Notes: generated by a model not told the origin, from the sequence alone. A DNA stretch of 36,626 bases from Actinomycetota bacterium (GCA_036781065.1 DAIQBQ010000001.1:1-36626), one strand, 5' to 3'; shown: positions 1 to 18,823, numbered from the stretch's first letter. A program made the numbers and translations.

Positions 1-67
1 CGAGCGGACCGTGGACTACCTGCGCGAGCACACCTGGATCCTGGGCCGCGTGGACGTGCGGGCATGA
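1..67 (+). CDS. 3' end of an unidentified upstream gene (partial, start outside window)
   Basis: Frame is open from the window edge and reads ...ERTVDYLREHTWILGRVDVRA then TGA at 65-67. The TGA overlaps the ATG (64-66) of the next gene as ATGA. Too short to assign a function. Confidence 0.3.
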   Translation, partial: ERTVDYLREHTWILGRVDVRA

Positions 68-1026
68 ACGTAGCGGTGGTCGGCTGTGGGCTGATCGGCC
101 GGAAGCGGGTCCAGGCGATGCCCCCGGGGACGCGGGTCGTCGCGCTGGCCGATCTCGACCGCTCCCGGGCGGAGGCGCTGGCCGCCACGCTGCCCTACCC
201 GGCGACGGTCACGGCGGATGCCGCGGAGGCGGTGGCCGGGGCCGACGTAGCGATCGTCGCCACGGTCCACAGCGCGCTCGCCGAGTGCGCGATCGCCGCG
301 CTCAAGGCCGGTTGCCACGTCCTCGTCGAGAAGCCCGGTGGCCGTGACCTGGCCGACCTGCGGGCGATCGCCGATGCTGCCGCCGCCGCCGGCAAAGTGG
401 TCCGGGTGGGGTTCAACCACCGGTTCCACCCGGCGCTGCTCAAGGCGAAAGAGCTTTCGACCAGCTATGGGCCGCTGATCTACGTCCGGGGTCGCTACGG
501 GCACGGGGGGCGGCTGGGCTACGAGAAAGAGTGGCGGGCGGACAAGGCGTCGTCGGGCGGGGGGGAGCTCGTCGACCAGGGGGTGCACCTGATCGATCTC
601 ACCCGCTACCTCGTGGGTGACGTCGACCTGGCCTTCGCCGAAATGCGGACCGACTTCTGGCCGATGGCGGTCGAGGACAACGCCTACCTGGCGCTCCGGC
701 CGCGGGGAGGGGGCTTCGCCTGGCTGCACGCTTCCTGGACGGAGTGGAAGAACATTTTCTCCCTGGAGCTTGCGTTCCGGGAGGCGAAGTTGGAAATCTT
801 CGGCCTCGGTGGGAGCTATGGGACGGAACGGCTGACGCTGTACGAGATGCTCCCCGAGATGGGGCCGCCCCCCACCACGATCTGGGAGTACCCCCGGGGC
901 GATGCCTCGTGGCAGCGAGAGCTGGTGGACGTGCTCGGCGCCATCGCCGGTGCCGAGCCGCTCGGTGCCGGTCTGGAAGACTCGATCGCAGCATTCACCG
1001 TCGTCGAGGAGGCCTACGCCCGATGA
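64..1026 (+). CDS. Gfo/Idh/MocA family NAD(P)-dependent sugar oxidoreductase
   Basis: 320-aa ORF with an ATG start. N-terminal Rossmann motif VAVVGCGLIGRKR and a VLVEKPG motif are typical of the family. The stop overlaps the next start (ATGA at 1023-1026). Confidence 0.85.
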   Translation: MNVAVVGCGLIGRKRVQAMPPGTRVVALADLDRSRAEALAATLPYPATVTADAAEAVAGADVAIVATVHSALAECAIAALKAGCHVLVEKPGGRDLADLRAIADAAAAAGKVVRVGFNHRFHPALLKAKELSTSYGPLIYVRGRYGHGGRLGYEKEWRADKASSGGGELVDQGVHLIDLTRYLVGDVDLAFAEMRTDFWPMAVEDNAYLALRPRGGGFAWLHASWTEWKNIFSLELAFREAKLEIFGLGGSYGTERLTLYEMLPEMGPPPTTIWEYPRGDASWQRELVDVLGAIAGAEPLGAGLEDSIAAFTVVEEAYAR

Positions 1027-2000
1027 TCATCACCAGGACACCGATGCGGATCTCACTCGGGGGAGGGGGCACGGACCTCCCGTCCCACTACCGCGTCGCC
1101 GGGGGATTCCTGGTCGCCGCCGCCATCACCCGGCACGTCTACATCGCCGCCCACCGCAACTTCGAGGACGACATCATGCTCAAGTACTCGCAGATCGAGC
1201 GGGCGCCCCAGCTGGAGGACATCAGGCACCCGCTCCTGCGTGAGGCGCTCCGGGTGACCGGCGTCACCGGGCAGGTCGAGATCACCTCGATGGCGGACAT
1301 CCCGGCGAAAACGGGGCTGGGCTCGTCGGGAAGCTTTACCGTCGGGGTGCTGAAGGCGCTCTACGCCTACCAGCACCGGCTTGTCTCGAACCTTCAGCTC
1401 GCCGAGCAGGCGTGCCACATTGAGATCGAGCGCCTGGGCGAGCCCGTGGGCAAGCAGGACCAGTACATCGCCGCTCTCGGCGGGGTGACCGCCTTCCGCT
1501 TCAACCCGGACGACTCGGTCGAGGTCACGCCGGTGCCGATGGCCGACGATACCCGGTGGCGGCTGGAGGAGAACCTCTTGCTTTTCTACACGGGTATGCG
1601 CCGTTCCGCGCCCCAGGTCCTGGCCGACCAGGACGCCAAATCGAAAGCGGCGGACCCCGACAACGCCAGCAACCTGGAGCGGGTCCGGGAGATCGGCGAG
1701 GAGAGCTTCGAGGCGCTGGCGTCGGGCGACCTGCCGACCTTCGCCAAGCTCATGACCGCCCAATGGGAGTTGAAGCGCCAGCGCTCGCCGAACGCCACCA
1801 ACGCAGAGATCGACCGATGGATCGCCGCGGGCCTGGATGCCGGAGCCCTGGGGGGAAAGCTGGTCGGTGCCGGCGGGGGAGGCTTCCTGCTGTTCTACGC
1901 CGAGTCCAAGGCGGAGGTGCGCAGCGCCATGGCGGGACTCGGCCTGCACGAGGTCCGGTTTGGCTTCGACTACGAGGGGTCGAAGCTGGTCGTCGCCTGA
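1023..2000 (+). CDS. hddA: GHMP sugar kinase, D-glycero-alpha-D-manno-heptose-7-phosphate kinase (HddA)-like
   Basis: ATG at 1023 lies inside the longer ORF 744-2000. N-terminus is MIITRTPMRISLGGGGTDLPSHY. GHMP motif PAKTGLGSSGSF and C-terminal GAGGGGF are present. The upstream extension is Arg/Gly-rich and looks non-coding. Confidence 0.8.
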   Translation: MIITRTPMRISLGGGGTDLPSHYRVAGGFLVAAAITRHVYIAAHRNFEDDIMLKYSQIERAPQLEDIRHPLLREALRVTGVTGQVEITSMADIPAKTGLGSSGSFTVGVLKALYAYQHRLVSNLQLAEQACHIEIERLGEPVGKQDQYIAALGGVTAFRFNPDDSVEVTPVPMADDTRWRLEENLLLFYTGMRRSAPQVLADQDAKSKAADPDNASNLERVREIGEESFEALASGDLPTFAKLMTAQWELKRQRSPNATNAEIDRWIAAGLDAGALGGKLVGAGGGGFLLFYAESKAEVRSAMAGLGLHEVRFGFDYEGSKLVVA

Positions 2001-2004
2001 CCCC

Positions 2005-2724
2005 ATGTACCCGGTCGCCATCCTCGCCGGGGGCAGGGGGACCCGCATGGCGGGCCGGACCGGACCGCTCCTGCCCAAGGCCATGTTGCCGGTGGCCGGC
2101 CGGCCGTTCATCGACCACAAGCTTGAGCAGCTGGCGGCGGAGGGGACCACCCGGGTGGTGCTGCTGCTGGGCCACGGCGCTGGGGCGATCGCCGACCACG
2201 TAGGCGACGGCGCCCGATACGGTCTGGAGGTGGCCGTGGTCCTCGACGGCGAGGTGCTGCTCGGGACCGGCGGGGCGGTGCGCCGGGCGCTTCCCGAGCT
2301 GGGCGAGGTGTTCTGGGTCACCTACGGGGACACCCTGCTGTCGGTGCCGGTGGCGGCGGCCGAGGCCGCCTTCCGGTCCACTCGCCGGCCGGGCCTGATG
2401 ACGGTGCTCGAGAACCACGATGCCTGGGACCTGAGCAACGTCGCCGTCTCCGGGGACCTGGTCGTCGAGTACCGCAAGGGAGCGCCGCCCGGGACCTTCG
2501 CCTTCATCGACTACGGCATGGTCATCCTGACCCGGGCGGCAGTGGCCTCCTTCCCCGAGGGCGCGCCGTTCGACCTGGCCGAGGTCCTGCACGGCCTGGT
2601 CCACGGGCGGCAGCTCACCGCCTTCGCGGTCACGGAACGGTTCCACGAGATCGGCAGCGATGCCGGCTACGTGGAGACTGATCGATGGCTGCGTAGCCGG
2701 CCGGCGGGGGGCCTTACCCCATAG
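2005..2724 (+). CDS. hddC: Sugar-1-phosphate nucleotidyltransferase, HddC (heptose-1-P guanylyltransferase)-like
   Basis: ATG at 2005, 4 nt after the hddA stop. Carries the signature MYPVAILAGGRGTRM...LPKAMLPVAGRPFI of NTP-transferases. About 239 aa. Confidence 0.8.
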   Translation: MYPVAILAGGRGTRMAGRTGPLLPKAMLPVAGRPFIDHKLEQLAAEGTTRVVLLLGHGAGAIADHVGDGARYGLEVAVVLDGEVLLGTGGAVRRALPELGEVFWVTYGDTLLSVPVAAAEAAFRSTRRPGLMTVLENHDAWDLSNVAVSGDLVVEYRKGAPPGTFAFIDYGMVILTRAAVASFPEGAPFDLAEVLHGLVHGRQLTAFAVTERFHEIGSDAGYVETDRWLRSRPAGGLTP

Positions 2725-2818
2725 CCAGCCGTCCTGCCCCCAAGGTCAGTGATCTGTTGCTGCCGAAGGTGCCTGACTCGGCGTGGACTCCCTCAGAAAG
2801 CTCGTCACAGCGTTCTGG

Positions 2819-3703
2819 TTAGTGCGGGGCACCCTCGGCGGCCTCACCGCTGGCGGGGTCGGCAACCGGTGGGAGCGGGAGCGGGACGATCTTTGACGGG
2901 AGCTCAGCGAGGGCGACGTTGGGGTCGCCCGGGGCGGAGCGCAGCGGCGTGAACCGGTACTTCACCAGGGCCACCATCCAGGTCATCGGGTCGCGGAAGA
3001 ACCGGACCTTCTTGCCGCTGTGGAAGTCCCGGGAGATGTAGGTGATGGGGACCTCCACCGGCTTGTTGCCCAGGCGGACGAGCTTGGCCACCAGCTCCCA
3101 GTCGAAGTCGAACCGGTTGGAGGTGAATGGCACCCCGACAATGCACGAGGTGCGGAAGACCTTGTACATGGTGAACGGGTCCCGCAGCTTGGTCCGGTAC
3201 ACCGTGTTGAACATGGTGGTGAACACCCAGTGGGCGCCGTTCATCACCCAGCTGGTGCGATGGGCGGCTTCGAAGTGACGGATCGGCCTCCCCGGGGCAT
3301 GCCGGCAGCCGAGGACGAAGTTGGTCTCCCCGGCGACCAGGGGGGCAAGGACCAGCGGGTACTCGGAGACCCGGTACTCGAGGTCGGCGTCCTGGATCAG
3401 GATGATGTCGCCGCGGGCATGGCCGAAGCCCTCCCGGACGGCGTTGCCCTTGCCGGAGGGGTGGTCCTGGAGGATAAGGCGTACGCGGGGATGTCCGGCA
3501 TAGCGCTGGACAACCTCCCGGCTGCCGTCGGTCGAGTTGCTCTCGACGACGATCACCTCGATCTCGACGCCAGGGATCTCGATCGTGGTCACCTCGTCCA
3601 GGATGGCGGCGACGGTGAGCGCCTCGTTGTAGACGGGAAGAACGACGCTGACGCTCGTGAGCCTGGCCGGGATGGGCGCTCCGTCGCCCACCTCGGCGCT
3701 CAA
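2819..3703 (-). CDS. GT2 glycosyltransferase, DPM1/GtrB-like polyprenyl-phosphate glycosyltransferase
   Basis: Motifs: VSVVLPVYNE, IQDADLEY, DPFTMYKVFR, EVPITYISR..GKK. The longest ORF start (3811) overlaps the upstream SIS gene by 112 nt. Likelier starts are TTG 3703 (TTGA overlap with the gmhA stop) or GTG 3691. ATG 3763 is also possible. Confidence 0.8.
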   Translation of the reverse strand: MSAEVGDGAPIPARLTSVSVVLPVYNEALTVAAILDEVTTIEIPGVEIEVIVVESNSTDGSREVVQRYAGHPRVRLILQDHPSGKGNAVREGFGHARGDIILIQDADLEYRVSEYPLVLAPLVAGETNFVLGCRHAPGRPIRHFEAAHRTSWVMNGAHWVFTTMFNTVYRTKLRDPFTMYKVFRTSCIVGVPFTSNRFDFDWELVAKLVRLGNKPVEVPITYISRDFHSGKKVRFFRDPMTWMVALVKYRFTPLRSAPGDPNVALAELPSKIVPLPLPPVADPASGEAAEGAPH

Positions 3704-4347
3704 ACCGGAGGGGCCGAGGGGGCCGCAGCTACCTGCTGGCCGTCCTCCTCGAGGGACTCCCATTTGGGCGTCGCTTGGGAAAGGTCCGGGTGCATGATCA
3801 TCAGGTGCCACAGCAACGCTTGCATCGCCTCAGTCTGGGCGGTCACGTTGCTGGCGACAACCGTTGGGACGAGGATCGAGCAGTCGGCCAACCGGCGCAG
3901 CGCCCCGCCGTCACGCCCCACGACACCGGTGATCGCCGCTCCGGCGGCCCGGGCTGCCAGCATGGCGTTGACCAGATTCGGGCTGACATTGCGCTGCTCG
4001 TCTCCGCCACCTACCGAAAAGACGACCAGGCAGTCGTCAGGCCCGATGCGCGAGCCGGTCAGCCAGTCCGCATAGGCCCGGTCCCACCCGTCGTCGTTCA
4101 CCCGCGCGGTCAGCTCGGACACATTGTCCGAGACGCAGTAAGCCTCGAAGCCGGCGAGCTTGCGGAAGTCGCAGGTGGCGTGCGACGCGTGTCCGGCGCC
4201 GCCGCCTGAACCGCAAAAGAACAGGCGACCGCGGCGATCCCGGGTCCTGCGCAGGAGGGCCACCGTTGCTTCGATCTCGTCGACCGAAAGCCTGGAAAGG
4301 ATCTCGACCGACTCTCCCAGAAAGCTTGTGGCGAATGCGTCCGGCAT
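3700..4347 (-). CDS. gmhA: SIS-domain sugar-phosphate isomerase, phosphoheptose isomerase (GmhA)-like
   Basis: 215 aa. Contains GRLFFCGSGGGAGHASHATCDF and VVFSVGGG segments typical of SIS isomerases. Sits in an operon with the GT2 and next to hddA/hddC. Confidence 0.8.
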   Translation of the reverse strand: MPDAFATSFLGESVEILSRLSVDEIEATVALLRRTRDRRGRLFFCGSGGGAGHASHATCDFRKLAGFEAYCVSDNVSELTARVNDDGWDRAYADWLTGSRIGPDDCLVVFSVGGGDEQRNVSPNLVNAMLAARAAGAAITGVVGRDGGALRRLADCSILVPTVVASNVTAQTEAMQALLWHLMIMHPDLSQATPKWESLEEDGQQVAAAPSAPPV

Positions 4348-4599: not shown

Positions 4600-5793
4600 A
4601 TGGGTTTTGAGCATGACGTAACCGTCATCGGTGGGTGTGGGCATGTCGGGCTGCCGCTCGGGCTGGCGCTGGCGGACCGGAACATGTCCGTGCTGCTCTT
4701 CGACATCAATGGCGCGGCGGTGGATTCGGTCAACGCCGGCCACATGCCGTTCCAGGAGCCCGGTGCCGATCCGGTCCTCAACCGGGTGCTGGCCGACGGC
4801 AGGCTGATCGCCACCACGGATCCGGTGTCGGTCTCAACGGCGGAGAACCTCGTGCTGATCGTGGGGACCCCGATCGACGACCATCTCAACCCGGAACCAC
4901 AGAAGGTGGTCGACGCGGTCGAGGCGCTGGGCGAGTACCTGGTCGACGGCCAGCTGCTGATCCTGCGGAGCACCCTCTATCCCGGTGTGACCGCCCTGGT
5001 CGAGGCGGTGATTTCCCGGTTGGGACGAGACATCGATGTCTGCTTCTGCCCCGAGCGCATCGCCGAGGGTCACGCCCTCACCGAGCTGTACGAACTCCCG
5101 CAGATCGTGTCCGGGCGCACCCCGAGAGCGGTCGAGCGAGCCGACAAGTTCTTCCGGGCGCTCACCGACAAGATCGTCTATCTCGACCCCGAAGAGGCGG
5201 AGCTGGCGAAGCTGTTCGTCAATACCTGGCGCTACATCCGGTTCGCGATCGCCAACCAGCTGTTCATGATCGCCAACGACTTCGGGGTGGACTTCGAACG
5301 GGTCCGCACGGCGCTGAGCGAGGACTACCCCCGCGCTGCGGACATGCCCGGGGCGGGCCTTGCGGCAGGGCCCTGCCTGCTCAAGGACACGATGCAGCTG
5401 GCCGCGTTCAACAACAACAACTTCGTCCTGGGGCACGCCAGCATGATGATCAATGAGGGCCTGCCCTCCTACCTGGTGGCAAGGCTGGAGCGCAGGTTCG
5501 ACCTGTCCGCCATGTGTGTCGGGGTGCTGGGCATGGCCTTCAAGGGGGGCTCGGACGACATCCGCTCCAGCCTGAGCTACAAGCTCAAGCGCATTCTCAA
5601 GCTGAAGGCCAAGTCGGTACTGACGACCGACCCATTCGTGAGCGTGGACCCGGACCTGAGCCCCCTCGATGAGGTCCTCGAACGCAGCGACCTGCTGGTG
5701 ATCGGCGCCCCGCACCGCCAGTACGCCGCCATCGATCCGCCGGTACCCGTGATCGACATCTGGAACCTGCTCGGCCGCGGAGTCCGGGTGTGA
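4600..5793 (+). CDS. UDP-glucose/GDP-mannose dehydrogenase family nucleotide-sugar dehydrogenase
   Basis: 397 aa. N-terminal VTVIGGCGHVGLPLG Rossmann fold and catalytic-Cys motif GLAAGPCLLKDT. SD AGGAG lies 6 nt upstream of the ATG. Confidence 0.9.
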   Translation: MGFEHDVTVIGGCGHVGLPLGLALADRNMSVLLFDINGAAVDSVNAGHMPFQEPGADPVLNRVLADGRLIATTDPVSVSTAENLVLIVGTPIDDHLNPEPQKVVDAVEALGEYLVDGQLLILRSTLYPGVTALVEAVISRLGRDIDVCFCPERIAEGHALTELYELPQIVSGRTPRAVERADKFFRALTDKIVYLDPEEAELAKLFVNTWRYIRFAIANQLFMIANDFGVDFERVRTALSEDYPRAADMPGAGLAAGPCLLKDTMQLAAFNNNNFVLGHASMMINEGLPSYLVARLERRFDLSAMCVGVLGMAFKGGSDDIRSSLSYKLKRILKLKAKSVLTTDPFVSVDPDLSPLDEVLERSDLLVIGAPHRQYAAIDPPVPVIDIWNLLGRGVRV

Positions 5794-6527
5794 CCCCAGC
5801 GGTCTCGGTCGTTGTCCCCGCCTACAACGAGGGGGCGGCGATTGTGCCCTGCCTGGACCGGCTTTTCGCCTCGATCCGCTCCGACTGCGAGGTGCTCGTG
5901 GTCTGCGATTCGGCGGAGGACACGACGATGCCCCACCTCGCTGACTACGCGGTCAGCGAGCCGCGGTTGGTCCCGACGCTGAACACCTACGGCCGCGGGC
6001 CGGCCAACGCGCTCCGGTTCGGCCTGGAGCACGCCCGGGCACCGGTCGCGGTCGTAACCATGGCCGACGGCAGTGACGACACCGACCAGATCGATGAGAT
6101 GACCCGGCTGGTCCAGGGCGGGGCAGCGGTGGTCGCCGCCTCCCGGTACATGCGCGGCGGGCGGCAGGACGGCGGCCCGCTGGTCAAGCGCTCGCTCTCC
6201 AGGGCGGCCGGGCTGTCCCTCTGCTGGTTCGGGCGGGTGGGCACCCATGACGCCACCAACTCGTTCAAGGCATACTCCACGTCCTTCGTGCGGGCGGCCG
6301 GCATCGAATCCGACGCCGGTTTCGAGATCGGCCTCGAACTGGTGAGCAAGGCCAAGGCGATGGGCCTCAGGGTTGCCGAGCTGCCCACGACCTGGACCGA
6401 TCGGACCGAGGGAACGTCGAACTTCAAGCTCAAGAAATGGCTCCCCAAGTACCTGCACTGGTACTGGCTGGCGATGAAGCCGGCCCGGTCGGGGGAACTG
6501 GTTAGCGCACCTGTGGAGGACGGATGA
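5790..6527 (+). CDS. GT2 glycosyltransferase, DPM1/GtrB-like polyprenyl-phosphate glycosyltransferase
   Basis: The GTG start overlaps the previous stop (GTGA at 5790-5793). Motifs: VSVVVPAYNE, MADGSDD, SRY, DATNSFKAY, ELPTTWTDRTEGTSNFK. These resemble dolichyl/polyprenyl-phosphate sugar synthases. Confidence 0.85.
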   Translation: MTPAVSVVVPAYNEGAAIVPCLDRLFASIRSDCEVLVVCDSAEDTTMPHLADYAVSEPRLVPTLNTYGRGPANALRFGLEHARAPVAVVTMADGSDDTDQIDEMTRLVQGGAAVVAASRYMRGGRQDGGPLVKRSLSRAAGLSLCWFGRVGTHDATNSFKAYSTSFVRAAGIESDAGFEIGLELVSKAKAMGLRVAELPTTWTDRTEGTSNFKLKKWLPKYLHWYWLAMKPARSGELVSAPVEDG

Positions 6528-7549
6528 GTACGGTAATGGTTTCCGGGTCGTGCGGGTTCATTGGCGGCTACGTGGTCGAGGAGTTGCTCGCCCAAGGCCA
6601 CGACGTGGTTGGCATCGACAACTACTCCAAGTACGGGAAGGTCGAGAAGTCCTACGACAACCATCCGCGGTACCACTTCACCGAGGGTGACGCCCGCGAC
6701 ACCAAGCTGATGACCGAATTGCTGGCCGACTGCGATCATTTCATCGCCGGGGCGGCGTTGATCGGGGGCATCTCGTACTTCCACACCTACGCCTACGACC
6801 TGCTGGCGGCCAACGAGCGGATCATCGCCTCCTCGTGTGACGCCGCCATCAACGTGCTGCCGGCCGGCCGGCTGAAGAAGATGACCTACATCTCCTCCTC
6901 GATGGTGTTCGAGTCCACCGATATCTGGCCGAGCGTTGAAGGCCAGGAGCGGCAGGTCCCGCCGCCCAAGTCCTCCTACGGATTCCAGAAGCTCGCCGTC
7001 GAATACTTTGCCCGGGCCGCCTACCAGCAGTACGGGCTGCCCTACACGATCCTCCGGCCCTTCAACTGCGTGGGGATTGGCGAGGGCCGTGCGCTCGGCG
7101 GCGTGGAGATCCCGAGCGGCAACATCAAGCTCGCCATGAGCCACGTCGTCCCGGATCTCGCCCAGAAGGTCATCAAGGGGCAGGACCCGCTGCACATCCT
7201 GGGTGACGGGAACCAGATCCGCCACTACACCTACGGCGGCGACCTGGCCAGGGGCATCGTCCTCACCCTCGACCACCCGGCGACGCTCAACGACGACTTC
7301 AACCTGTCGACGCACGAGTCCACGACGGTCCTGGAGTTGGCCCGCCTGATCTGGAGCAAGTTCAAGGGCCCGGACGTGGCGTTCAACTACGTGAGCGACC
7401 CGCCCTTCGAGCACGACGTCCAGCGCCGCGTCCCCTCGGTCGAGAAGGCCAGGACCCTGCTCGGCTACCAGGCGACCACGTCACTCAGCGACATGCTCGA
7501 CGAGGTGCTGCCCTGGGTCGAGCAGGCGGTAGCGGACGGCATTCTGTAA
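6524..7549 (+). CDS. NAD-dependent nucleotide-sugar epimerase/dehydratase (SDR)
   Basis: ATGA overlap with the upstream gene and SD GGAGGA upstream. Motifs: GSCGFIGG (GxxGxxG) and SSYGFQK (YxxxK). 341 aa. Confidence 0.9.
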   Translation: MSTVMVSGSCGFIGGYVVEELLAQGHDVVGIDNYSKYGKVEKSYDNHPRYHFTEGDARDTKLMTELLADCDHFIAGAALIGGISYFHTYAYDLLAANERIIASSCDAAINVLPAGRLKKMTYISSSMVFESTDIWPSVEGQERQVPPPKSSYGFQKLAVEYFARAAYQQYGLPYTILRPFNCVGIGEGRALGGVEIPSGNIKLAMSHVVPDLAQKVIKGQDPLHILGDGNQIRHYTYGGDLARGIVLTLDHPATLNDDFNLSTHESTTVLELARLIWSKFKGPDVAFNYVSDPPFEHDVQRRVPSVEKARTLLGYQATTSLSDMLDEVLPWVEQAVADGIL

Positions 7550-9198: not shown

Positions 9199-12171
9199 TC
9201 AGCCCGCCGGGCTGACGCGGATGTGGTAGGCCCGTACGTCATCGAGGTTCGGGTTGTAGTAGGCGTCGATGTACTCGCCGGGCTGGCCCCAACGGCCCCG
9301 GAAGAACTGCTCGTCGGCCGGTGGGTGCAGGCTGCCCCGGGTAGCGCTCTCATCGTGGTACAGCTCGGCGTAGGGCGTGTACACGATGCGGTAGCCGGCG
9401 GCGAGGGCGCGTAGGCAATAGTCGACGTCGTTAAACGCCACCGCGAGGTTCTCCTCCATGCCGTGGAGCCCCTCATACACCTCCATGCGGGTCATCATGC
9501 AGGCGGCCGTGACCGCACTGACGTTGGTAACGGCGCTTCCCTGACCGAAGTACTCGCGGTGGTCGACGTTGTTGGCGGTACCGCCCACCCCCAAGACCAC
9601 CCCTTCGTGCTGGGGGCTGCCGTCGCGGTGGCGCAGCCGGGCGCCGACGGCAGCGATAGGCGGCTGCTGAGCATATTCGAGCATCGCTTCGATCCACCCC
9701 GGGGTGATCACCTCGGTGTCGTTGTTCAGGAACACCAGGTAGTCGGCCCGAGCCTCCCGGGCGGCCTCGTTCATCATCGCGGCGTAGTGGAACCGGTGCG
9801 GGTAGGGGAGCACCCGACCCTTCACCGTCGACAGATATTCGAGCGTCTCCGGGTCGGTGCTCTGGTTGTCGACCACGATCACCTCGTAGTTCCGGTAGGT
9901 CGACAGCGATTGGATGCTCTCCACGGCGGTGCGCAACAGGTCGACCCGGTCCCGGGTCGGGATGATGATCGCCACCCGGGGGTTGTCCTCGATTGCGAAC
10001 CGGACCCGGTAGCTGCCCTTCCACAGACCGGGAGTTACCTCACCCGTCAGCCCCCGGCGATCCAGTGCCTCGGTCAGCGCCCGCCGGCCGGCGGTGTTCG
10101 CCCAGGGCTTGGCCTCGGTCGAGCCGGCTGCCGACCCCGGGATCTTGCGCCAGGTGTACAGCGGCAAGGCGATGTGGGCGGTGCGCTCGGTCTTCTCGCT
10201 GACCCGCAGGATCAGGTCATGGTCTTGGCTGCCATCAAATCCCGGCCGGAGCCCCCCGACCTTGTTGACGATTGACCGCCGGTATACCGAAAAATGCGTG
10301 ACGTAGTTCATGGCGAGCAGTAACTCCGGAGACCAGTCCGGCTTGAAGAAGGCGTCGACCAGTCGCCCGTCGGGCTCCCGCTTGTCCTCGTCCGAGTAGA
10401 TGAAGTCAAGGTCGGGCCTCCGGTTGAGCAGCGAAACCACCTCGAACAGGGCGTTGGGCTTCAGCTCGTCATCATGATCCAGCAGGCCCACGAACTCCCC
10501 CGTTGCCAAGCCAAGCGCTCGGTTCGTCGCCCCGGAGATCCCCCGCCCGGGACTCAGCCGGGCCAGCTTGACCCCGCGCACGAGTTTGAGGCCGCGCATC
10601 GCCTTGCGGGTCTGCGGGTTCGTCGAGCAGTCGTCAACAATGCACAGCTCCCACCGGGGATAGGTCTGGTTCCGGACAGAGGCAACCGCGGCCCTGAGCC
10701 AGGTGGGGTCGGTGTTGTGCACCGGCACCAGGATGCTGATGGTCGGCTGGAAGGAGAGCCGCCGGGCCATCCTTCGCTGCTCCTGCAGGGCCTCAGGGCT
10801 CGGCGTGTGCTGGCGGAGCCAGTGCTGGTACTCCTCGTCGAGCGAAAGTTCCGGCCCGGTGGGCGGGGCGGGGACCAGCTCCGGGACGGTGGCGACCCCA
10901 GACACCCAGTCGCGCACATTCGGGAGCTGCCGGGTGAACCCGACGACGCCCTCGCGGGCGAGCAGCCTGGCCGCCCTGGAACCGCCCAGGAGAACCTGCC
11001 GCCGCTTCGTGGACCACGGTGCGACCTGGTCGACCTGGGCGATCGTCCGCTCGACAATTCGATGGCCCAGGCTGTGCCGCAGCCGCTCGAGCTCCGCGCG
11101 AGCCGACGCCTCCCCTGCCCGGGCCTGACCGACCTCACCCCGCAGCCCGGCCAGCTGGGCCTCCCGCGTCCGTACCGCCGCGTCGAGCTCATCGGCAAGC
11201 GCTCGGACCCGGGCCGCGTGCTCTTCGATGGCCGCGTCTTTCGCCGTTAGGAGCGTGTCCTTGTCGCTGCACGCCTGCCGGAGCACGCCGAGGGCGGCCT
11301 GTTGATCTTGGAGAGCAGCGTGCTGAGCTTGAAGTGCTGCATCCTTCTGGGCTATGAGCTCCTGCTGAGCTGCGAGTGCTTCCCCCTGGGCGGCGACGCT
11401 GGCGTGCTGGCGGTCGAGCATCTCCCGGTGCTCGGTGAGGGCCTGGTCCTTTCGGAGCCCCTCTTCTCTGCTGAGCTGGCCGGACAGCCGCTGCCCGAGC
11501 TCCGAGAAGAGCTTGGGCACCCACGGGGTGGCAAACGCCTCCCGGAACCGTTCCAGCGCCGGCGGCTCGTCCGGGCCGACGGAGGCGACTCCCAGACCGT
11601 GGCCGTGGGCGAACTCGAAGTGCGGGTAGCGCTCGGCAAGCTCCGCCCAGAAACGCCAGACGCCAAAAGTACCCTCGCGGACATTCGTGTCATGGAGGAG
11701 CACGACCGCCTGCCGGCTCAACTTGGGTTCCCAGGTCTCGAAGTCGTGGCGCACCGCCTCGTAGGTGTGCCAGCCGTCAATATGCAGCAGGTCAATCGAC
11801 CCATCGGCGAACTGATTGACGGCGCCGTCGAATCGGGACTGAATTAATGCGGAGAACTCGGCGTAGTGGTGATCGTGGTGAAGCCGCAGATCCTGGAGGA
11901 TCTCGGGCCCGTAGAACCCAGTCTGGTCGTCCCCTTCCCAGGTGTCGACGGCGAAGCACCGGCTTGCCAGCCCCAACTCCTGGACCGCTTGGCAGAATGA
12001 GCAGTAGGAGTCCCCGTTGTGGGTGCCGAGCTCGACGATAAGAGATGGCCGCACCAAGTCGACCACCAACATGCCGAAAGGAATGTGTTCGACCCAGGCC
12101 GATTTGTCGGTCAGCCTCCGGGGGGTAGACAGGGCGACCGGATGGTCGCCCAGATCGAATGTAGCGCTCAT
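9199..12171 (-). CDS. Multidomain protein: class I SAM methyltransferase + coiled coil + two GT2 glycosyltransferase domains
   Basis: Probable start is ATG 12171 (MSATFDLGD...). The 63 codons up to 12360 are Arg/Pro-rich and look non-coding. MTase motifs: VELGTHNGDSY and LLHIDGWHTY...LLHD. A proline-free Ala/Gln/Leu-rich segment lies at about nt 11053-11475. GT2-A: ISILVPVHNT, IVDDCS, LDHDD. GT2-B: VAIIIPTRDR, VVDNQS, LNNDT. Confidence 0.85.
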   Translation of the reverse strand: MSATFDLGDHPVALSTPRRLTDKSAWVEHIPFGMLVVDLVRPSLIVELGTHNGDSYCSFCQAVQELGLASRCFAVDTWEGDDQTGFYGPEILQDLRLHHDHHYAEFSALIQSRFDGAVNQFADGSIDLLHIDGWHTYEAVRHDFETWEPKLSRQAVVLLHDTNVREGTFGVWRFWAELAERYPHFEFAHGHGLGVASVGPDEPPALERFREAFATPWVPKLFSELGQRLSGQLSREEGLRKDQALTEHREMLDRQHASVAAQGEALAAQQELIAQKDAALQAQHAALQDQQAALGVLRQACSDKDTLLTAKDAAIEEHAARVRALADELDAAVRTREAQLAGLRGEVGQARAGEASARAELERLRHSLGHRIVERTIAQVDQVAPWSTKRRQVLLGGSRAARLLAREGVVGFTRQLPNVRDWVSGVATVPELVPAPPTGPELSLDEEYQHWLRQHTPSPEALQEQRRMARRLSFQPTISILVPVHNTDPTWLRAAVASVRNQTYPRWELCIVDDCSTNPQTRKAMRGLKLVRGVKLARLSPGRGISGATNRALGLATGEFVGLLDHDDELKPNALFEVVSLLNRRPDLDFIYSDEDKREPDGRLVDAFFKPDWSPELLLAMNYVTHFSVYRRSIVNKVGGLRPGFDGSQDHDLILRVSEKTERTAHIALPLYTWRKIPGSAAGSTEAKPWANTAGRRALTEALDRRGLTGEVTPGLWKGSYRVRFAIEDNPRVAIIIPTRDRVDLLRTAVESIQSLSTYRNYEVIVVDNQSTDPETLEYLSTVKGRVLPYPHRFHYAAMMNEAAREARADYLVFLNNDTEVITPGWIEAMLEYAQQPPIAAVGARLRHRDGSPQHEGVVLGVGGTANNVDHREYFGQGSAVTNVSAVTAACMMTRMEVYEGLHGMEENLAVAFNDVDYCLRALAAGYRIVYTPYAELYHDESATRGSLHPPADEQFFRGRWGQPGEYIDAYYNPNLDDVRAYHIRVSPAG

Positions 12172-12498
12172 GGTTCCGGCATCACTCCCGAACACGGTAT
12201 CAGAGCAGGGTGCGTCGCCGATGGTCGATCGCTTCCTCCGAGTGCTCCGGGGCCGTGGCCCCACGAATGACGGCGCGGGCCTTCGTTGATGGACCACGTG
12301 CGGTCGAGGCCAGCATGAGCGGACCCTCGATGCCATTCGTTGGGTTGGCGGCGTCTCCAACGGTATGGTCTCCTGGGTTGCGGCCCAGCCAAGCCGACCG
12401 GCGGGGACGTCCGGGAATTGTGCTGATTGTTGTATAGGCCATTTATCAGACGTTAGTTGTGCTAAACCAATTCGCCTAAACAGACTTGCGAGGTATCG

Positions 12499-14035: not shown

Positions 14036-14188
14036 GTGGCAGACGTCGGGTTCGTGCTGTTCTTAGTAGCCTTCTTCGCCCTCGCCGCCGGCTTCGTTGT
14101 GGCCTGCGACAAGATCATCGGGAGCCCGTCGGCGTTCGAGGGCGGGGAGCCGGAGGCTGAGCGCCCCAGGGAAGAGTCCGCCGCGTGA
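14036..14188 (+). CDS. Small membrane protein (50 aa), first ORF of the kdp operon (not in the ORF track)
   Basis: GTG at 14036 sits 6 nt after a strong SD, AAAGGAGG (14022-14029). Product is [50 protein letters not shown]: one TM helix plus an acidic tail. The stop overlaps the kdpF GTG (GTGA, 14185-14188). Caveat: it contains the rare codons TTA and GTA. Confidence 0.45.
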
Positions 14189-14271
14189 TCGAAAACATCG
14201 TCGGGTTGATCATCGCTGCGCTCCTGACCGCCTTCCTGGTCTTCGCGCTCATCTTTCCGGAAAAACTGTGA
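14185..14271 (+). CDS. kdpF: K+-transporting ATPase subunit F
   Basis: 28-aa [31 protein letters not shown]. The single TM helix and the ...ALIxPEK(L/F) C-terminus are typical of KdpF. Its stop overlaps the kdpA GTG (GTGA, 14268-14271). Confidence 0.7.
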
Positions 14272-15989
14272 CCGCCGCAGCGTGGGCGCAGCTGGGCGCG
14301 CTGATCGTTGCCCTGGCGATCCTGGCGCCCCCGCTCGGGTGGTACCTGGCCAAGGTCTATGGCGGCGGCAGCGCGCCCGGCGACCGGGTCTTCGGCCCGC
14401 TGGAGCGGCTGATCTACCGGCTGTGCGGCATCGACCCCGAGGGCGAGCAGCACTGGAAGGTTTACGCCTTCTCGCTGCTGGCATTCAGCTTCGTCTCAGT
14501 CCTGATCTTGTACGCCCAGCTACGCCTCCAGGGGCACCTGCCACTCAACCCGAACCACTTCAAGGGGGTCACCCCGGCGCTGTCGTTCAACACCGCGGTC
14601 AGCTTCCTGACCAACACCAACTGGCAGAACTACGCCGGCGAGTCGACGATGGCGCAGCTGACCCAGATGGCCGGCCTCGCCTTCCACAACTTCGTGTCGG
14701 CCGCCGCCGGGGCCGCCGTGGCCGTGGCTCTCATCCGGGGCCTGATCCGAAAGCGCACCCAGAACCTCGGCAACTTCTGGGTCGACCTCACCCGCACCTG
14801 CACCCGGGTGCTGCTGCCGATCTGTATCGCGGCGACCATCATCCTGGTCAGCCAGGGGGCGGTCCAGAACTTCCACCACGACACAACCGCCCATACCGTC
14901 CAGGGCGCCACCCAGCAGCTCCCCGGCGGCCCGGTCGCCAGCCAGGAGGCGATCAAGGAGGCCGGCCAGAACGGCGGCGGCCCGTACAACGCCAACTCGG
15001 CGCACCCCTACGAGAACCCCAACCCGATCACCGACATCGTCGAGATCGTCCTCATCCTGCTGATCCCGTTCTCCTTCCCGTTCGCCTACGGGTTCCTGGT
15101 GGGGGACAAGAAGCAGGGGTTCGTGATCGTTGCCACCATGTTCGTCCTGTGGCTGGCGATGGCGCTGGCCGCGATGACCCTGGAGACTCACGGCAGCGTC
15201 AAGCTGGCAGCCGCCGGGGCCAACCAGGCGGTGACCTCCACCCAGTCCGGCGGGAACATGGAGGGCAAGGAGGTCCGCTTCGGCGCTGCCTCGTGCGGGC
15301 TGTTCGCCGCCAGCACCACCGGGACCTCGGCCGGGGCGGTCAACTGCTCCCACGACAGCCTGACCCCGCTCGGGGGGGCGGTCGCGCTCGTCAACATCAT
15401 GTTCGGCGAGGTCGACCCCGGAGGGACCGGTTCCGGCCTCTACGGCATGCTGATCTTCGCCCTGCTGGCGGTGTTCATCGCCGGGCTGATGGTCGGCCGG
15501 ACCCCGGAGTACCTGGGCAAGAAGATCCAGGCCGCGGAGATGAAACTGGTCGTGCTCTACATCCTGGCGGTGCCGTTCGTCATCCTCGTGTTGACCGCCG
15601 CCTCGGTGCTGCTCAAGGGCCCGCTCACGTCGCTGGGCAACACCGGCCCCCACGGCCTGACCGAGATGATCTACGCCTTCACCTCGCAGGCCAACAACAA
15701 CGGCTCCGCCTTCGCCGGCCTCAACGGCAACACGGTGTGGTTCAACACCACCGGTGCGATCGCCGAGCTGGTCGGCCGGTTCTTCCTCATGATCCCGGTG
15801 CTGGCGATCGCCGGCTCGCTGGCGATGAAGCAGCCGGTCCCGCCCTCGGCGGGCACCTTCCCCACCGGCAGCAAGCTGTTCTTCGGCCTGCTGATCGGCG
15901 TGGTGCTGATCGTCGTCGGGCTGACCTTCTTCCCCGTCGTGGCGCTCGGCCCCATCGTCGAGCACCTGGCCGGCCACTTCAGCGTCTGA
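14268..15989 (+). CDS. kdpA: K+-transporting ATPase subunit A
   Basis: GTG at 14268 gives [33 protein letters not shown]...[13 protein letters not shown], a typical KdpA N-terminus. About 573 aa, polytopic. The ORF portion upstream of 14268 is Arg-rich and non-coding-like. Confidence 0.95.
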
Positions 15990-15999
15990 GGAGCCTTTG

Positions 16000-18099
16000 G
16001 TGAATACGCCTACCGAGACCGTCACAAAGCCAGCGGTGCCACCGGAGCGGCACAAGTCGGCCGCCAAGAGGCAGCCGATGTTGAACCCGGCCATTCTCAA
16101 GCGGGGCGTCGTCGATGCCGTACGCAAACTCGACCCCCGCCAGATGGCCAGCAACCCGGTGATGTTCGTGGTCGAGGTGGGCAGCGTGCTCACCACCGTC
16201 CTGTTCTTCACCGGACTGCACTCGTCGACGGCGGCGAGCAGCGTGTTCGTGGCACTGGTGTCGGTCTGGCTGTGGTTCACGGTGCTGTTCGCCAACTTCG
16301 CCGAGGCGGTGGCCGAGGGCCGGGGCAAGGCCCAGGCCGATACCCTGCGCAAGACCCGGTCGGAGACCGTCGCCTACTGCCGGCAGCCGGACGGGACGCT
16401 CGCCGAGAAGCCGTCGTCGCAGCTGACCATCGGCGACCTGTGCGTCGTCAGGCCCGGCCAGTTGATCCCGGGTGACGGCGAGATCGTCGAGGGCATCGCC
16501 TCGGTCGACGAGTCGGCGATCACCGGTGAGTCCGCCCCGGTGATCCGGGAGTCCGGGGGCGACCGCTCCTCGGTGACCGGCGGCACCCGGGTGCTCTCCG
16601 ACGAGATCGTTGTGCGGATCAGCTCGATGCCCGGCGAGAGCTTCCTCGACCGGATGATCTCCCTGGTCGAGGGGGCCAGCCGGCAGAAGACCCCGAACGA
16701 GATCGCCCTCAACATCCTGCTGGCCGGCCTGACGATCGTGTTCCTGCTGGCGGTGGTCACGCTGCAGCCGTTCGCCATGTACTCCCACGCCACCCAGACG
16801 ATCACGGTGCTGGTCGCCCTGCTTGTCTGCCTCATCCCGACGACGATCGGCGGCCTGCTTTCCGCTATCGGCATCGCCGGTATGGACCGTTTGGTGCAGC
16901 GCAACGTGCTGGCGATGAGTGGCCGGGCGGTCGAGGCCGCCGGCGACTGCTCGACGCTGCTGCTCGACAAGACCGGCACGATCACCCTCGGCAACCGGCA
17001 AGCCTGCGAATTCCTGCCGGTCGGCTCCGTCACCGAGGAAGAGCTGGCCGAAGCCTCGCTCATGTCGAGCCTGGCGGACGAGACCCCGGAGGGCCGGTCG
17101 ATCGTGGAGCTTGCCAAGACCGCGTACGGGCTGCAGGCCCAGGAGCTGGCCGACGCCACCCTGGTCGCCTTCACCGCCCAGACCCGGATGAGCGGGGTGG
17201 ACCTCCCGGGGCCGCAGCCGCGATCGATCCGCAAGGGGGCCGCCGACTCGGTCCGTCGCTGGGTCACCGAGCAGGGTGGCCACGTGCCCGATGGGTTGGA
17301 ACCCGTCGTGGCGACGATTGCCACCACCGGAGGGACGCCACTGGTGGTCGCTGACGGGACCCGGGTGCTCGGCGTGATCCACCTGAAGGACGTCGTGAAG
17401 TCGGGGATCTCCGAGCGCTTCGCCCAGCTCCGCAAGATGGGGATCCGCACGGTGATGATCACCGGCGACAACCCGCTGACCGCGGCGGCCATCGCCAAGG
17501 AGGCCGGGGTCGACGACTTTCTCGCCGAGGCCACCCCCGAAGACAAGATGGCCCTCATCAAGAAGGAGCAGCAGGGGGGCTTTCTGGTCGCCATGACCGG
17601 GGACGGGACCAACGATGCTCCGGCCCTCGCTCAGGCCGACGTCGGCGTCGCTATGAACACCGGCACCCAGGCAGCCAAAGAGGCGGGCAACATGGTTGAC
17701 CTCGACTCCAACCCGACCAAGCTGATGGAGATCGTTGAGATCGGCAAGCAGCTGCTGATCACCCGGGGGTCGCTGACGACGTTCTCTATCGCCAACGACG
17801 TCGCCAAGTACTTCGCGATCATCCCGGCGATGTTCCAGGGGGTGTTCCCGGCGTTGAAGACGCTCAACATCATGAAGCTGGCCAACCCGCACTCGGCGAT
17901 CCTGTCGGCGGTGATCTTCAACGCCCTGATCATCGTGGCGCTGATCCCGCTGGCGCTGAAGGGGGTCAAGTTCCGTCCGTTGGGGGCGGCGGCAGTGCTG
18001 CGCCGCAACCTGCTGATCTACGGGGTCGGCGGCGTCATCGCCCCGTTCGTTGGCATCAAGGCCATCGACCTGCTCATCGCCGCCCTGGGGGTGCATTAG
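16000..18099 (+). CDS. kdpB: K+-transporting P-type ATPase subunit B
   Basis: P-type ATPase motifs DKTGTIT, MITGDN and [10 protein letters not shown]. The GTG at 16000 lies 5 nt after GAGGAG. TTG at 15997 is an alternative start. Confidence 0.95.
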
Positions 18100-18101
18100 C
18101 C

Positions 18102-18677
18102 ATGCGCCGCCAGCTACTCCCCGGGCTGCGGATGACCATCGTGCTCACCGTGTTGCTCGGCCTCGTGTACCCGCTCGTGATGACCGGCGTCGCTCAGGGC
18201 CTGTTCCCATCGAAGGCGAACGGGTCGTTGATCACGAAGGGCGGTGTGGTTGTGGGGTCGAGCTTGATCGGCCAGAACTTCACGTCGGCAAAATACTTCC
18301 AGCCCCGGCCGTCGTCGGCGGGCACCAACGGGTACGACCCTACGGGCAGCTCCGCTTCCAACCTCGGCCCGTCCAGCCACACGCTGCTGCGGGCGGTGGC
18401 CCAGCGGGTGGCGGCCTACCGGCAGGAGAACGGGCTGGCTGCGAACGCTCCGGTCCCCGTGGACGCCGTGACCGGCTCCGGGTCGGGCCTGGACCCGGAC
18501 ATCTCGGTGGCCAACGCCGACGACCAGGCGGCCCGGGTGGCCTCCGCGCGGGGCCTGCCGCTGTCGACGGTGATGGCGCTGGTCCGGGCCAACACCCGCG
18601 GCCGCCAGTGGGGGATCTTCGGCGAGACGACGGTCAACGTCCTGGAGCTGAACCTGGCCCTCGACGCCAGGCACTGA
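18102..18677 (+). CDS. kdpC: K+-transporting ATPase subunit C
   Basis: 191 aa. N-terminal TM helix [32 protein letters not shown]. Contains [10 protein letters not shown], the hallmark KdpC motif. Confidence 0.95.
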
Positions 18678-18772
18678 GGCGACCCCGACGAACCCACTGC
18701 CGAGCTGGCGAGGACGGCATCGCTCAGGGCGCTGGTGTCGCGGAGGGGCGTGGGTCCCCAGGGGGGGTTCCT

Positions 18773-18823
18773 AGTTCTGTGCGCGATTGAGGACACTATT
18801 TGTCCCTGGACGCGCACAGAACT
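18773..18823. terminator. 13-bp perfect inverted repeat between convergent kdpC and the lipoprotein gene (bidirectional terminator or protein-binding palindrome)
   Basis: AGTTCTGTGCGCG (18773-18785) pairs with CGCGCACAGAACT (18811-18823) across a 25-nt spacer. The spacer holds an inner GGAC/GTCC pair. The element sits in a locally AT-richer patch. Confidence 0.5.

Follow-up and report, generated by a model that had tools for sequence, protein, structure and literature searches.

A candidate self-terminating glycan polymerase with an N-terminal methyltransferase and a coiled-coil spacer in a soil Actinomycetota contig

Can a single polypeptide build a glycan, measure its length and end it with a methyl cap in a soil actinobacterium whose locus carries no linked exporter? 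This question is raised by one gene of a 36,626-nt (36.6-kb) contig from a soil metagenome. The whole contig is the stretch of DNA that was analyzed and is referred to here as the window. The gene encodes a 990-amino-acid (990-aa) protein in which a methyltransferase, a coiled coil and two glycosyltransferase family 2 (GT2) modules are joined in one chain (Table 1). The protein is fairly likely to be a self-terminating glycan polymerase that works in the cytoplasm, probably in peripheral association with the membrane, and is of the type represented by WsaE and by ORF6 of the Klebsiella pneumoniae O7 locus.

In the proposed mechanism, the two C-terminal GT2 modules would alternate and extend a polyprenol-linked glycan, and the donor would probably be a sugar made locally, of the nucleoside diphosphate (NDP)-heptose type or another. 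Elongation would halt once the N-terminal Mg-dependent-type O-methyltransferase had placed a methyl group on the non-reducing end as a cap. The coiled coil, about 130-150 residues and ~200 Å long, would keep the capping site apart from the polymerizing sites. Only chains over a minimum length would then be capped, the rod serving as a ruler.

Domain architecture and catalytic modules

The open reading frame (ORF) runs from an ATG at 12169-12171 to a stop at 9199-9201 and contains no internal stop codon. The identical product was called independently by the metagenome gene callers of the ENA and Logan assemblies. A longer ORF starting from an upstream TTG at 12360 was rejected because the N-termini of 20 homologues and the independent gene calls match the ATG at 12171. 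Pfam detected Methyltransf_24 (PF13578) at aa 46-162 (E 2.5e-25), Glycos_transf_2 (PF00535) in two stretches, the best of them at aa 479-638 (E 3.2e-48), and Glyco_tranf_2_3 at aa 731-941 (E 5e-22). No kinase domain was found in the protein by Pfam, and NCBIfam returned only sub-threshold matches to assorted GT2 enzymes. A full-length AlphaFold2 model of the monomer, built with a 57-sequence alignment, has a mean predicted local distance difference test (pLDDT) score of 86. It predicts, in this order after the methyltransferase, one long helix, two shorter helices, a disordered linker with prolines at 430, 434, 436, 437 and 440, and two confident GT-A modules. A first-pass annotation of this DNA had already proposed a gene at 9199-12171 with a methyltransferase, a helical stretch and two GT2 modules. 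Translation, Pfam and AlphaFold2 confirm it, all the motifs quoted there were found in their places, and the profile search of each domain that it recommended recovered the three Pfam families above. On both strands of 9463-11847, other reading frames across the gene contain several long ORFs (110-270 aa); these are typical high-GC artefacts without family support and are not genes. A promoter and terminator scan around the gene found nothing beyond expectation.

The predicted structure of the C-terminal half shows a dual-GT-A polymerase fold. When the whole model was searched with Foldseek, the best matches were Pasteurella heparosan synthase 2 (PmHS2) and the Escherichia coli K4 chondroitin polymerase (K4CP), with E ~1e-20. 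At the sequence level, the first GT2 module matches the chondroitin synthase 2z87 in the PDB (E 5e-20). Residues D565, D567 and D568 of its LDHDD motif are invariant in 57 homologues, and N816 and D818 of the LNNDT motif in the second module are nearly invariant in the same alignment.

The N-terminal domain is a class I S-adenosylmethionine (SAM)-dependent O-methyltransferase and the putative chain-capping terminator, the latter role being assigned by analogy. Its SAM-motif residues E47, G49, G53 and D76 are invariant in the homologue alignments. D76, H130/D132 and H160-D161 are invariant or nearly so across the family, and N163 is nearly invariant among closer homologues. Modelled alone with AlphaFold2, the domain reaches a pLDDT of 94.5. 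Its best fold match in the PDB is MeT1 of Mycobacterium hassiacum (6G80/6G7D; E 7.6e-11, TM-score ~0.65), followed by SafC and Mg-dependent O-methyltransferases of the CCoAOMT/COMT type. A PDB sequence search with the domain alone at E up to 10 gave no match except a spurious one to a His-tag, and the top 50 fold matches do not include WbdD, the capping enzyme of E. coli O8 and O9a. The "WbdD-like methyl-cap chemistry" of the first-pass annotation therefore holds only as a concept, the fold being of the MeT1 and CCoAOMT/COMT type.

MeT1 is an actinobacterial sugar O-methyltransferase that works on an oligosaccharide end. It differs from the window domain, to which it is ~19% identical, in being a stand-alone enzyme of intracellular methylmannose polysaccharide (MMP) without a coiled coil or fused glycosyltransferase. 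The match prompted consideration of a role in an intracellular polymethylated polysaccharide such as MMP or methylglucose lipopolysaccharide (MGLP). This role was judged unlikely because MMP uses a GT-B mannosyltransferase and because the locus encodes many polyprenyl-phosphate GT2s and GT-C enzymes, as loci for envelope glycans typically do.

The same match bears on a rather unlikely alternative, in which the methyltransferase of a polymerase only decorates internal repeats, the lipid-linked primer or the reducing end, and the coiled coil only dimerizes or scaffolds the chain. The target of MeT1 is the reducing-end 1-OH of methylmannose oligosaccharides rather than a growing tip, and no cap-reading Wzt_C module was found near the genes of the closest homologue clade. 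However, the domain distal from the glycosyltransferase modules is the terminator in every characterized coiled-coil protein of the pathway (PMC11231755), and an enzyme that modifies every repeat would gain nothing from a distance of ~200 Å to the polymerase. In addition, the close-clade loci contain separate, stand-alone methyltransferases for other methylations. By analogy with the characterized proteins, methylation by the window protein would be terminal rather than internal.

The helical spacer and its variation among homologues

If the rod is to act as a ruler, the segment between the methyltransferase and the polymerizing modules should be a real structural element. The first-pass annotation had described a stretch of ~140 residues that lacks proline and is rich in Ala, Gln, Leu, Glu and Arg. 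The stretch is present, and its extent had been understated: the proline-free run covers 165 residues (aa 220-384; 21% Ala, 13% Leu and 11% Gln, with many Glu and Arg). A crude heptad score in 28-residue windows, which lay only ~2.3 standard deviations (SD) above shuffles, was replaced by a phase-specific test and a Fourier test, and these were decisive. Between aa 245 and 370, L, I, V or M occurs in the same phase in 14 of 18 consecutive heptads; none of 20,000 shuffled sequences reached this number, the maximum being 11. Fourier power at a period of 3.5 is ~14x the null value (p<0.0005), and a period of 3.6 shows no excess. This region is a genuine heptad repeat in an unbroken register and not a product of chance composition. 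In the last third of the helix, the canonical a and d positions are hydrophobic. The coiled-coil check that had been advised thus yields a heptad register and a continuous helix in the AlphaFold2 monomer, and the segment is not predicted to be disordered. At ~1.5 Å per residue, about 130-150 residues would span ~200-220 Å if the rod is straight.

These tests speak to a very improbable rival, according to which the helical segment is merely a flexible or biased linker, rich in Ala, Arg and Gln as a result of high GC and without a structural role. Such a linker would agree with the poor sequence conservation of the segment, with the low crude window score, and with a PDB sequence search that returned only non-significant coiled-coil proteins. 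It does not account for a phase that is kept over all 18 heptads at a period of 3.5 rather than 3.6, nor for so long a proline-free run predicted as a single helix. Moreover, the heptad signal recurs in homologues that differ widely in composition and phylum. On the heptad statistics, this rival is largely excluded.

The homologue family was collected by a word-indexed search, in which 8,000 candidates were scored and 3,739 proteins passed E<=1e-10. PF13578 and PF00535 are both present in all of the 120 best homologues. Named sources include Actinomycetota, Chloroflexota, Vicinamibacterales, Rhodospirillaceae, Mesorhizobium and a Nitrososphaerota archaeon, to which the genome scan adds Paenibacillus, Bifidobacterium, Pseudomonas, Methanosarcina, candidate phyla radiation (CPR) lineages and others. 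The survey of homologues for coiled-coil length that had been suggested found that length does vary. Across 117 homologues, the spacer, taken as the distance between the methyltransferase and the first GT2 module, has a median length of 241 residues; the shortest has 85 and the longest 800. Their longest stretches without proline measure between 39 and 321 residues. The heptad score exceeds that of shuffles by more than 2 SD in 81% of these proteins. In the closest clade, the spacer is confined to 232-260 residues. Spacer sequence is poorly conserved and its length is variable, and together with the heptad signal these patterns fit a length-setting spacer without proving it. In alignment A1 (columns ~280-345), the close homologue P0008 has a 14-residue unit, QQEALAEKDRGLGI, equal to two heptads, that is repeated in tandem four times; rod length can evidently change through in-register duplication. 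The range of 85-800 residues constitutes a natural spacer series that could be used for testing the ruler model outside Enterobacteriaceae.

Beyond the coiled coil, the protein contains a conserved segment with a net charge of +6 (aa 366-424), in which alignment A1 shows the block ...APWSTRRRQ..LAG..AAR.... Within it, aa 391-408, RQVLLGGSRAARLLAREG, is the most amphipathic 18-mer of the protein, with a hydrophobic moment of 0.64. The 990-aa protein has no transmembrane segment. The region around aa 391-408 could be a peripheral membrane anchor at the polymerase end; it is put forward as a candidate because WbdD has an amphipathic membrane-binding region at its polymerase-proximal end.

Relation to known capping polymerases

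Four characterized systems provide the basis for terminal capping and ruler function in the proposed mechanism. ORF6 and WsaE were compared with the window protein by published description and motif pattern. ORF6 of K. pneumoniae O7 polymerizes and terminates the O7 antigen and consists of an N-terminal methyltransferase, a kinase, a carbohydrate-binding module (CBM)-like domain, a coiled coil and two C-terminal GT2 rhamnosyltransferase modules (Kelly et al. 2024, PMC11231755). Its authors regard the strategy as widespread and the coiled coil as its marker (PMC11231755). Both proteins are single chains with a distal methyltransferase, a central coiled coil and two C-terminal GT2 modules, and both carry a DXDD motif followed by an NXD motif, which read LDHDD and LNNDT in the window protein. 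ORF6 is longer (1414 aa), has the extra kinase and a CBM-like Ig fold, and makes a methyl-phosphate cap. The ORF6 methyltransferase is closest to CgnL, whereas the window domain belongs to Methyltransf_24 and is closest to MeT1 and CCoAOMT. ORF6 uses dTDP-rhamnose and is encoded beside wzm/wzt; the window has neither rml genes nor wzm/wzt.

WsaE of Geobacillus stearothermophilus NRS 2004/3a acts in S-layer glycan synthesis. Its N-terminal 2-O-methyltransferase makes the chain-ending methyl cap and is followed by two rhamnosyltransferase domains; wsaE overlaps wzm/wzt in a cluster that includes rmlABCD (PMC2943079). WsaE resembles the window protein in its Gram-positive origin and in combining an N-terminal O-methyltransferase with two glycosyltransferase domains in one soluble chain. 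The WsaE cap is a direct O-methyl group on the non-reducing end, without phosphate, and the enzyme is soluble and cytoplasmic. The loci differ, in that the window lacks both wzm/wzt and rmlABCD and carries a heptose-type pathway. Firmicute homologues of the GT2 tandem occur in L057, L077 and L082; the N-terminal module of the Paenibacillus protein in L057 is Methyltransf_23, in contrast to Methyltransf_24 in the window protein.

WbbB of Klebsiella O12 and Raoultella terrigena also unites a terminator, a coiled-coil ruler and two polymerizing glycosyltransferase modules in one chain. The first-pass annotation had likened the window protein to it, and this comparison stands for the domain order. 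It does not extend to the domains themselves: WbbB terminates with a beta-3-deoxy-D-manno-octulosonic acid (Kdo) transferase (GT99) and polymerizes with GT102 and GT103, which were not found in the window protein, where a methyltransferase and GT2 modules stand instead. The PDB sequence matches of the window protein include no WbbB chain.

In the WbdD/WbdA system of E. coli O8 and O9a and K. pneumoniae O3 and O5, a methyl or methyl-phosphate cap is combined with a coiled-coil ruler. The polymerase-proximal, amphipathic membrane-binding region of WbdD may have its counterpart in the predicted basic helix at aa 391-408. The WbdA polymerase is a separate protein that is recruited to WbdD, whereas the glycosyltransferase modules of the window protein are part of the same chain as the methyltransferase. 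The catalytic domain of WbdD is not detectably related to the window methyltransferase, and the window protein has no kinase domain.

The statement of the first-pass annotation that it knew of no ruler system described in a high-GC Gram-positive context does not hold up, since the Gram-positive WsaE and K. pneumoniae O7 ORF6 have this layout. A terminator/ruler/polymerase reading of the protein is plausible but not new; the enzyme belongs to a known and widespread kind and does not represent a new ruler system. What the reading adds is reach: a strategy known mainly from Klebsiella and E. coli O-antigens and one Geobacillus S-layer glycan would extend to uncultured soil Actinomycetota and to many phyla.

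Exporter linkage and neighbouring genes

Wzt and Wzm profile hidden Markov models (HMMs) were built from the retrieved loci. Among the 170 sequences scanned, comprising 169 fetched loci and the window, 98 have Wzt-like genes and 94 have Wzm-like genes. In 5 of the 6 distant loci that have a full methyltransferase-GT2-GT2 ORF and an upstream flank, an ATP-binding cassette (ABC) ATPase lies immediately upstream. The genes wzm/wzt directly precede the distant same-architecture homologues in L013, L030, L082, L018 and L020, and in the first two of these loci the upstream ATPase bears a Wzt_C cap-binding module. The presence of wzm/wzt and Wzt_C beside distant homologues indicates that the family at large belongs to the ABC-transporter, chain-terminator pathway. 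GT2-GT2 tandem homologues also lie directly 3' of wzt in the Paenibacillus loci L057 and L077, the Paenibacillus N-terminal module being Methyltransf_23. In Bifidobacterium callitrichos (L081), the gene has the same position and a third GT2 serves as the N-terminal module. The terminator module appears to have been swapped between lineages. An Enterobacteriaceae locus (L046) was considered as the O7 ORF6 orthologue and rejected; its ORF has 1164 aa and no wzt was flagged.

The window and its closest relatives differ from this pattern, and their loci supply part of what weighs against a self-terminating polymerase. No ABC-transporter gene was found in the window by Pfam on plausible genes, by a Walker and signature motif scan, or by the Wzt and Wzm HMMs, and neither a Wzt_C module nor an initiating phosphoglycosyl transferase is present in its 36.6 kb. 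Flanks of the close clade were scanned up to 10 kb per side, as the contigs allowed, and wzm/wzt, Wzt_C and an initiating phosphoglycosyl transferase were not found within ~10 kb in seven other independent loci. The earlier caveat that the window has no wzm/wzt is thereby reinforced, the genes being absent from the flanks of 8/8 independent close-clade loci, window included. A methyl cap would therefore be without a visible reader at the locus. The remaining points on this side concern the spacer. Its helix has a pLDDT of only 50-74, a value expected for a coiled coil modelled as a monomer, and the middle third shows one Leu or Ile with flanking Ala per heptad and a polar residue at the classical "a" position, so that the oligomeric state of the presumed coiled coil is uncertain.

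The close clade has lost its genomic linkage to the exporter: either the exporter genes lie elsewhere or export takes another route. The missing linked exporter is the one feature that the literature does not already explain. The novelty of the locus lies in this missing cap-reading ABC exporter and in recurrent uncharacterized membrane partners, the enzyme type being already explained.

Table 1. Coordinates of the features described, in protein residues (aa) and in window positions (nt)
Feature	Protein (aa)	Window (nt)	Strand	Basis or context
Complete gene, methyltransferase/coiled-coil/GT2/GT2 protein	990 aa	9199..12171	(-)	Translation
Class I SAM-dependent O-methyltransferase domain, N-terminal	1-216	11524..12171	(-)	Pfam Methyltransf_24, AlphaFold2
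Motif VELGTHNGDSY (motif I is VELGTHNGDS)	46-56			Methyltransferase domain
Motif LLHIDGWHTYEAV	128-140			Methyltransferase domain
Motif LLHD	158-161			Methyltransferase domain
Coiled-coil spacer, one predicted helix of 149 residues	217-365	11077..11523	(-)	AlphaFold2, heptad tests
Conserved post-coiled-coil segment, helices 368-383 and 389-424	366-424	10900..11076	(-)	Alignment A1, AlphaFold2
Pro-rich linker, short, low confidence	425-443	10843..10899	(-)	pLDDT <50 over aa 426-435, no secondary structure
First GT2 (GT-A fold) module, DXDD motif	444-725	9997..10842	(-)	Pfam PF00535, pLDDT >90
ISILVPVHNT	478-487			First GT2
IVDDCS	511-516			First GT2
LDHDD (DXDD)	564-568	10468-10482	(-)	First GT2
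Second GT2 module, NXD motif	726-990	9202..9996	(-)	Pfam Glyco_tranf_2_3
VAIIIPTRDR	733-742			Second GT2
VVDNQS	766-771			Second GT2
LNNDT (NXD)	815-819	9715-9729	(-)	Second GT2
Polytopic membrane protein, uncharacterized family, co-directional downstream gene	465 aa	7600..8997	(-)	
Polytopic membrane protein, second uncharacterized family, divergent upstream gene	424 aa	12499..13773	(+)	
NDP-sugar dehydrogenase, GtrB/Dpm1-like GT2 (245 aa) and NAD-dependent epimerase/dehydratase		4600..7549	(+)	Pfam, NCBIfam
Sugar-nucleotide block		64..4347	both	Pfam, NCBIfam
GFO/IDH/MocA oxidoreductase		64-1026	(+)	
HddA-like GHMP kinase		1023-2000	(+)	
Sugar-1-P nucleotidyltransferase		ending 2724	(+)	
AglJ/Dpm1-like GT2		2819-3811	(-)	
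GmhA-like SIS_2		3700-4347	(-)	
KdpA, KdpB, KdpC potassium-pump operon		14097-18790	(+)	Beside the glycan locus

The polymerase gene is flanked by genes for two polytopic membrane proteins of 465 aa and 424 aa, the latter with ~10 hydrophobic segments, and searches of Pfam and NCBIfam matched neither of them, even at E<5. In cyanobacterial, Chloroflexia, Acidobacteriota and other loci, the gene directly following the polymerase homologue encodes a homologue of the 465-aa protein, and the 465-aa protein is probably a partner of the polymerase. Homologues of the 424-aa protein adjoin both close-clade and distant polymerase genes, and in L020 and L014 the homologues of the two membrane proteins adjoin each other. 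All listed database homologues of the flanking membrane proteins are annotated as hypothetical, and none of those listed for the 465-aa protein has a Pfam domain except one GT2 fusion (P0215). The two proteins were tested as the missing exporter and as a known GT-C, with no family match to either, and were rejected as simple replacements for the exporter; they are also present in L020, which bears wzm/wzt.

The sugar donors appear to be made locally. The sugar-nucleotide block at the start of the window likely supplies an NDP-heptose-type donor, and its gene set also flanks the close homologues in L084 and L087, the latter with an additional HAD phosphatase and transaldolase. These genes resemble a GDP-D-glycero-D-manno-heptose-type pathway, with oxidoreductase, epimerase and reductase genes alongside. 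The presence of heptose-type pathway genes suggests that the glycan may contain a modified heptose rather than rhamnose. Pfam and NCBIfam found no rml genes in the window.

The dehydrogenase, GtrB-like GT2 and epimerase genes form a trio that recurs in the close-clade loci L003, L088 and L089 and probably makes a polyprenyl-phosphate sugar donor for extracytoplasmic glycosylation. In the close clade, the trio adjoins GT-C-type proteins (YfhO, PMT_2/DUF2142-like). The trio in this setting resembles the lipid-linked-donor systems of extracytoplasmic, post-polymerization glycosylation (PMC11127046). No flippase was identified beside these genes in 4600-7549 of the window or in L003, L088 and L089.

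A matching gene set is found in the seven other independent close-clade loci, together with one to four YfhO-like or PMT_2-like GT-C proteins and one or two GtrB/Dpm1-like GT2s. It may be supposed, though it is unlikely, that the close clade has a capping ruler-polymerase uncoupled from Wzm/Wzt, which uses the 465-aa and 424-aa membrane families and GT-C enzymes of the YfhO/PMT_2 type. If such uncoupling is true, it would represent an undescribed export and assembly route by which a Gram-positive bacterium makes a cell-envelope glycan that contains heptose and has a controlled length.

The same enzymes can be read in another, quite improbable way, in which the GT2 modules are non-processive and add a fixed few sugars, as an adaptor or short oligosaccharide on a lipid or protein, and the GT-C enzymes build the long polymer or side chains outside the membrane. 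The abundance of GT-C and GtrB/Dpm1-like proteins in these loci and the lack of an exporter for a long polymer fit this possibility, and counted additions do occur in the family, one GT2 module of ORF6 adding exactly two rhamnoses (PMC11231755). Nevertheless, fold and sequence are closest to those of true dual-GT polymerases, and homologues of the same architecture are located in wzm/wzt polymer-export loci. A 150-residue rod whose length varies across the family would also lack an obvious purpose in making a fixed oligosaccharide.

The GC content of the window is ~68%, and its genes include one for the proteasome activator Bpa; together with KdpABC, these features point to an actinobacterium. 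The synteny of the KdpABC operon beside the glycan locus is conserved in the ENA assembly of the same sample. In L001, an ORF of 50 aa upstream of kdpA may be a kdpF candidate.

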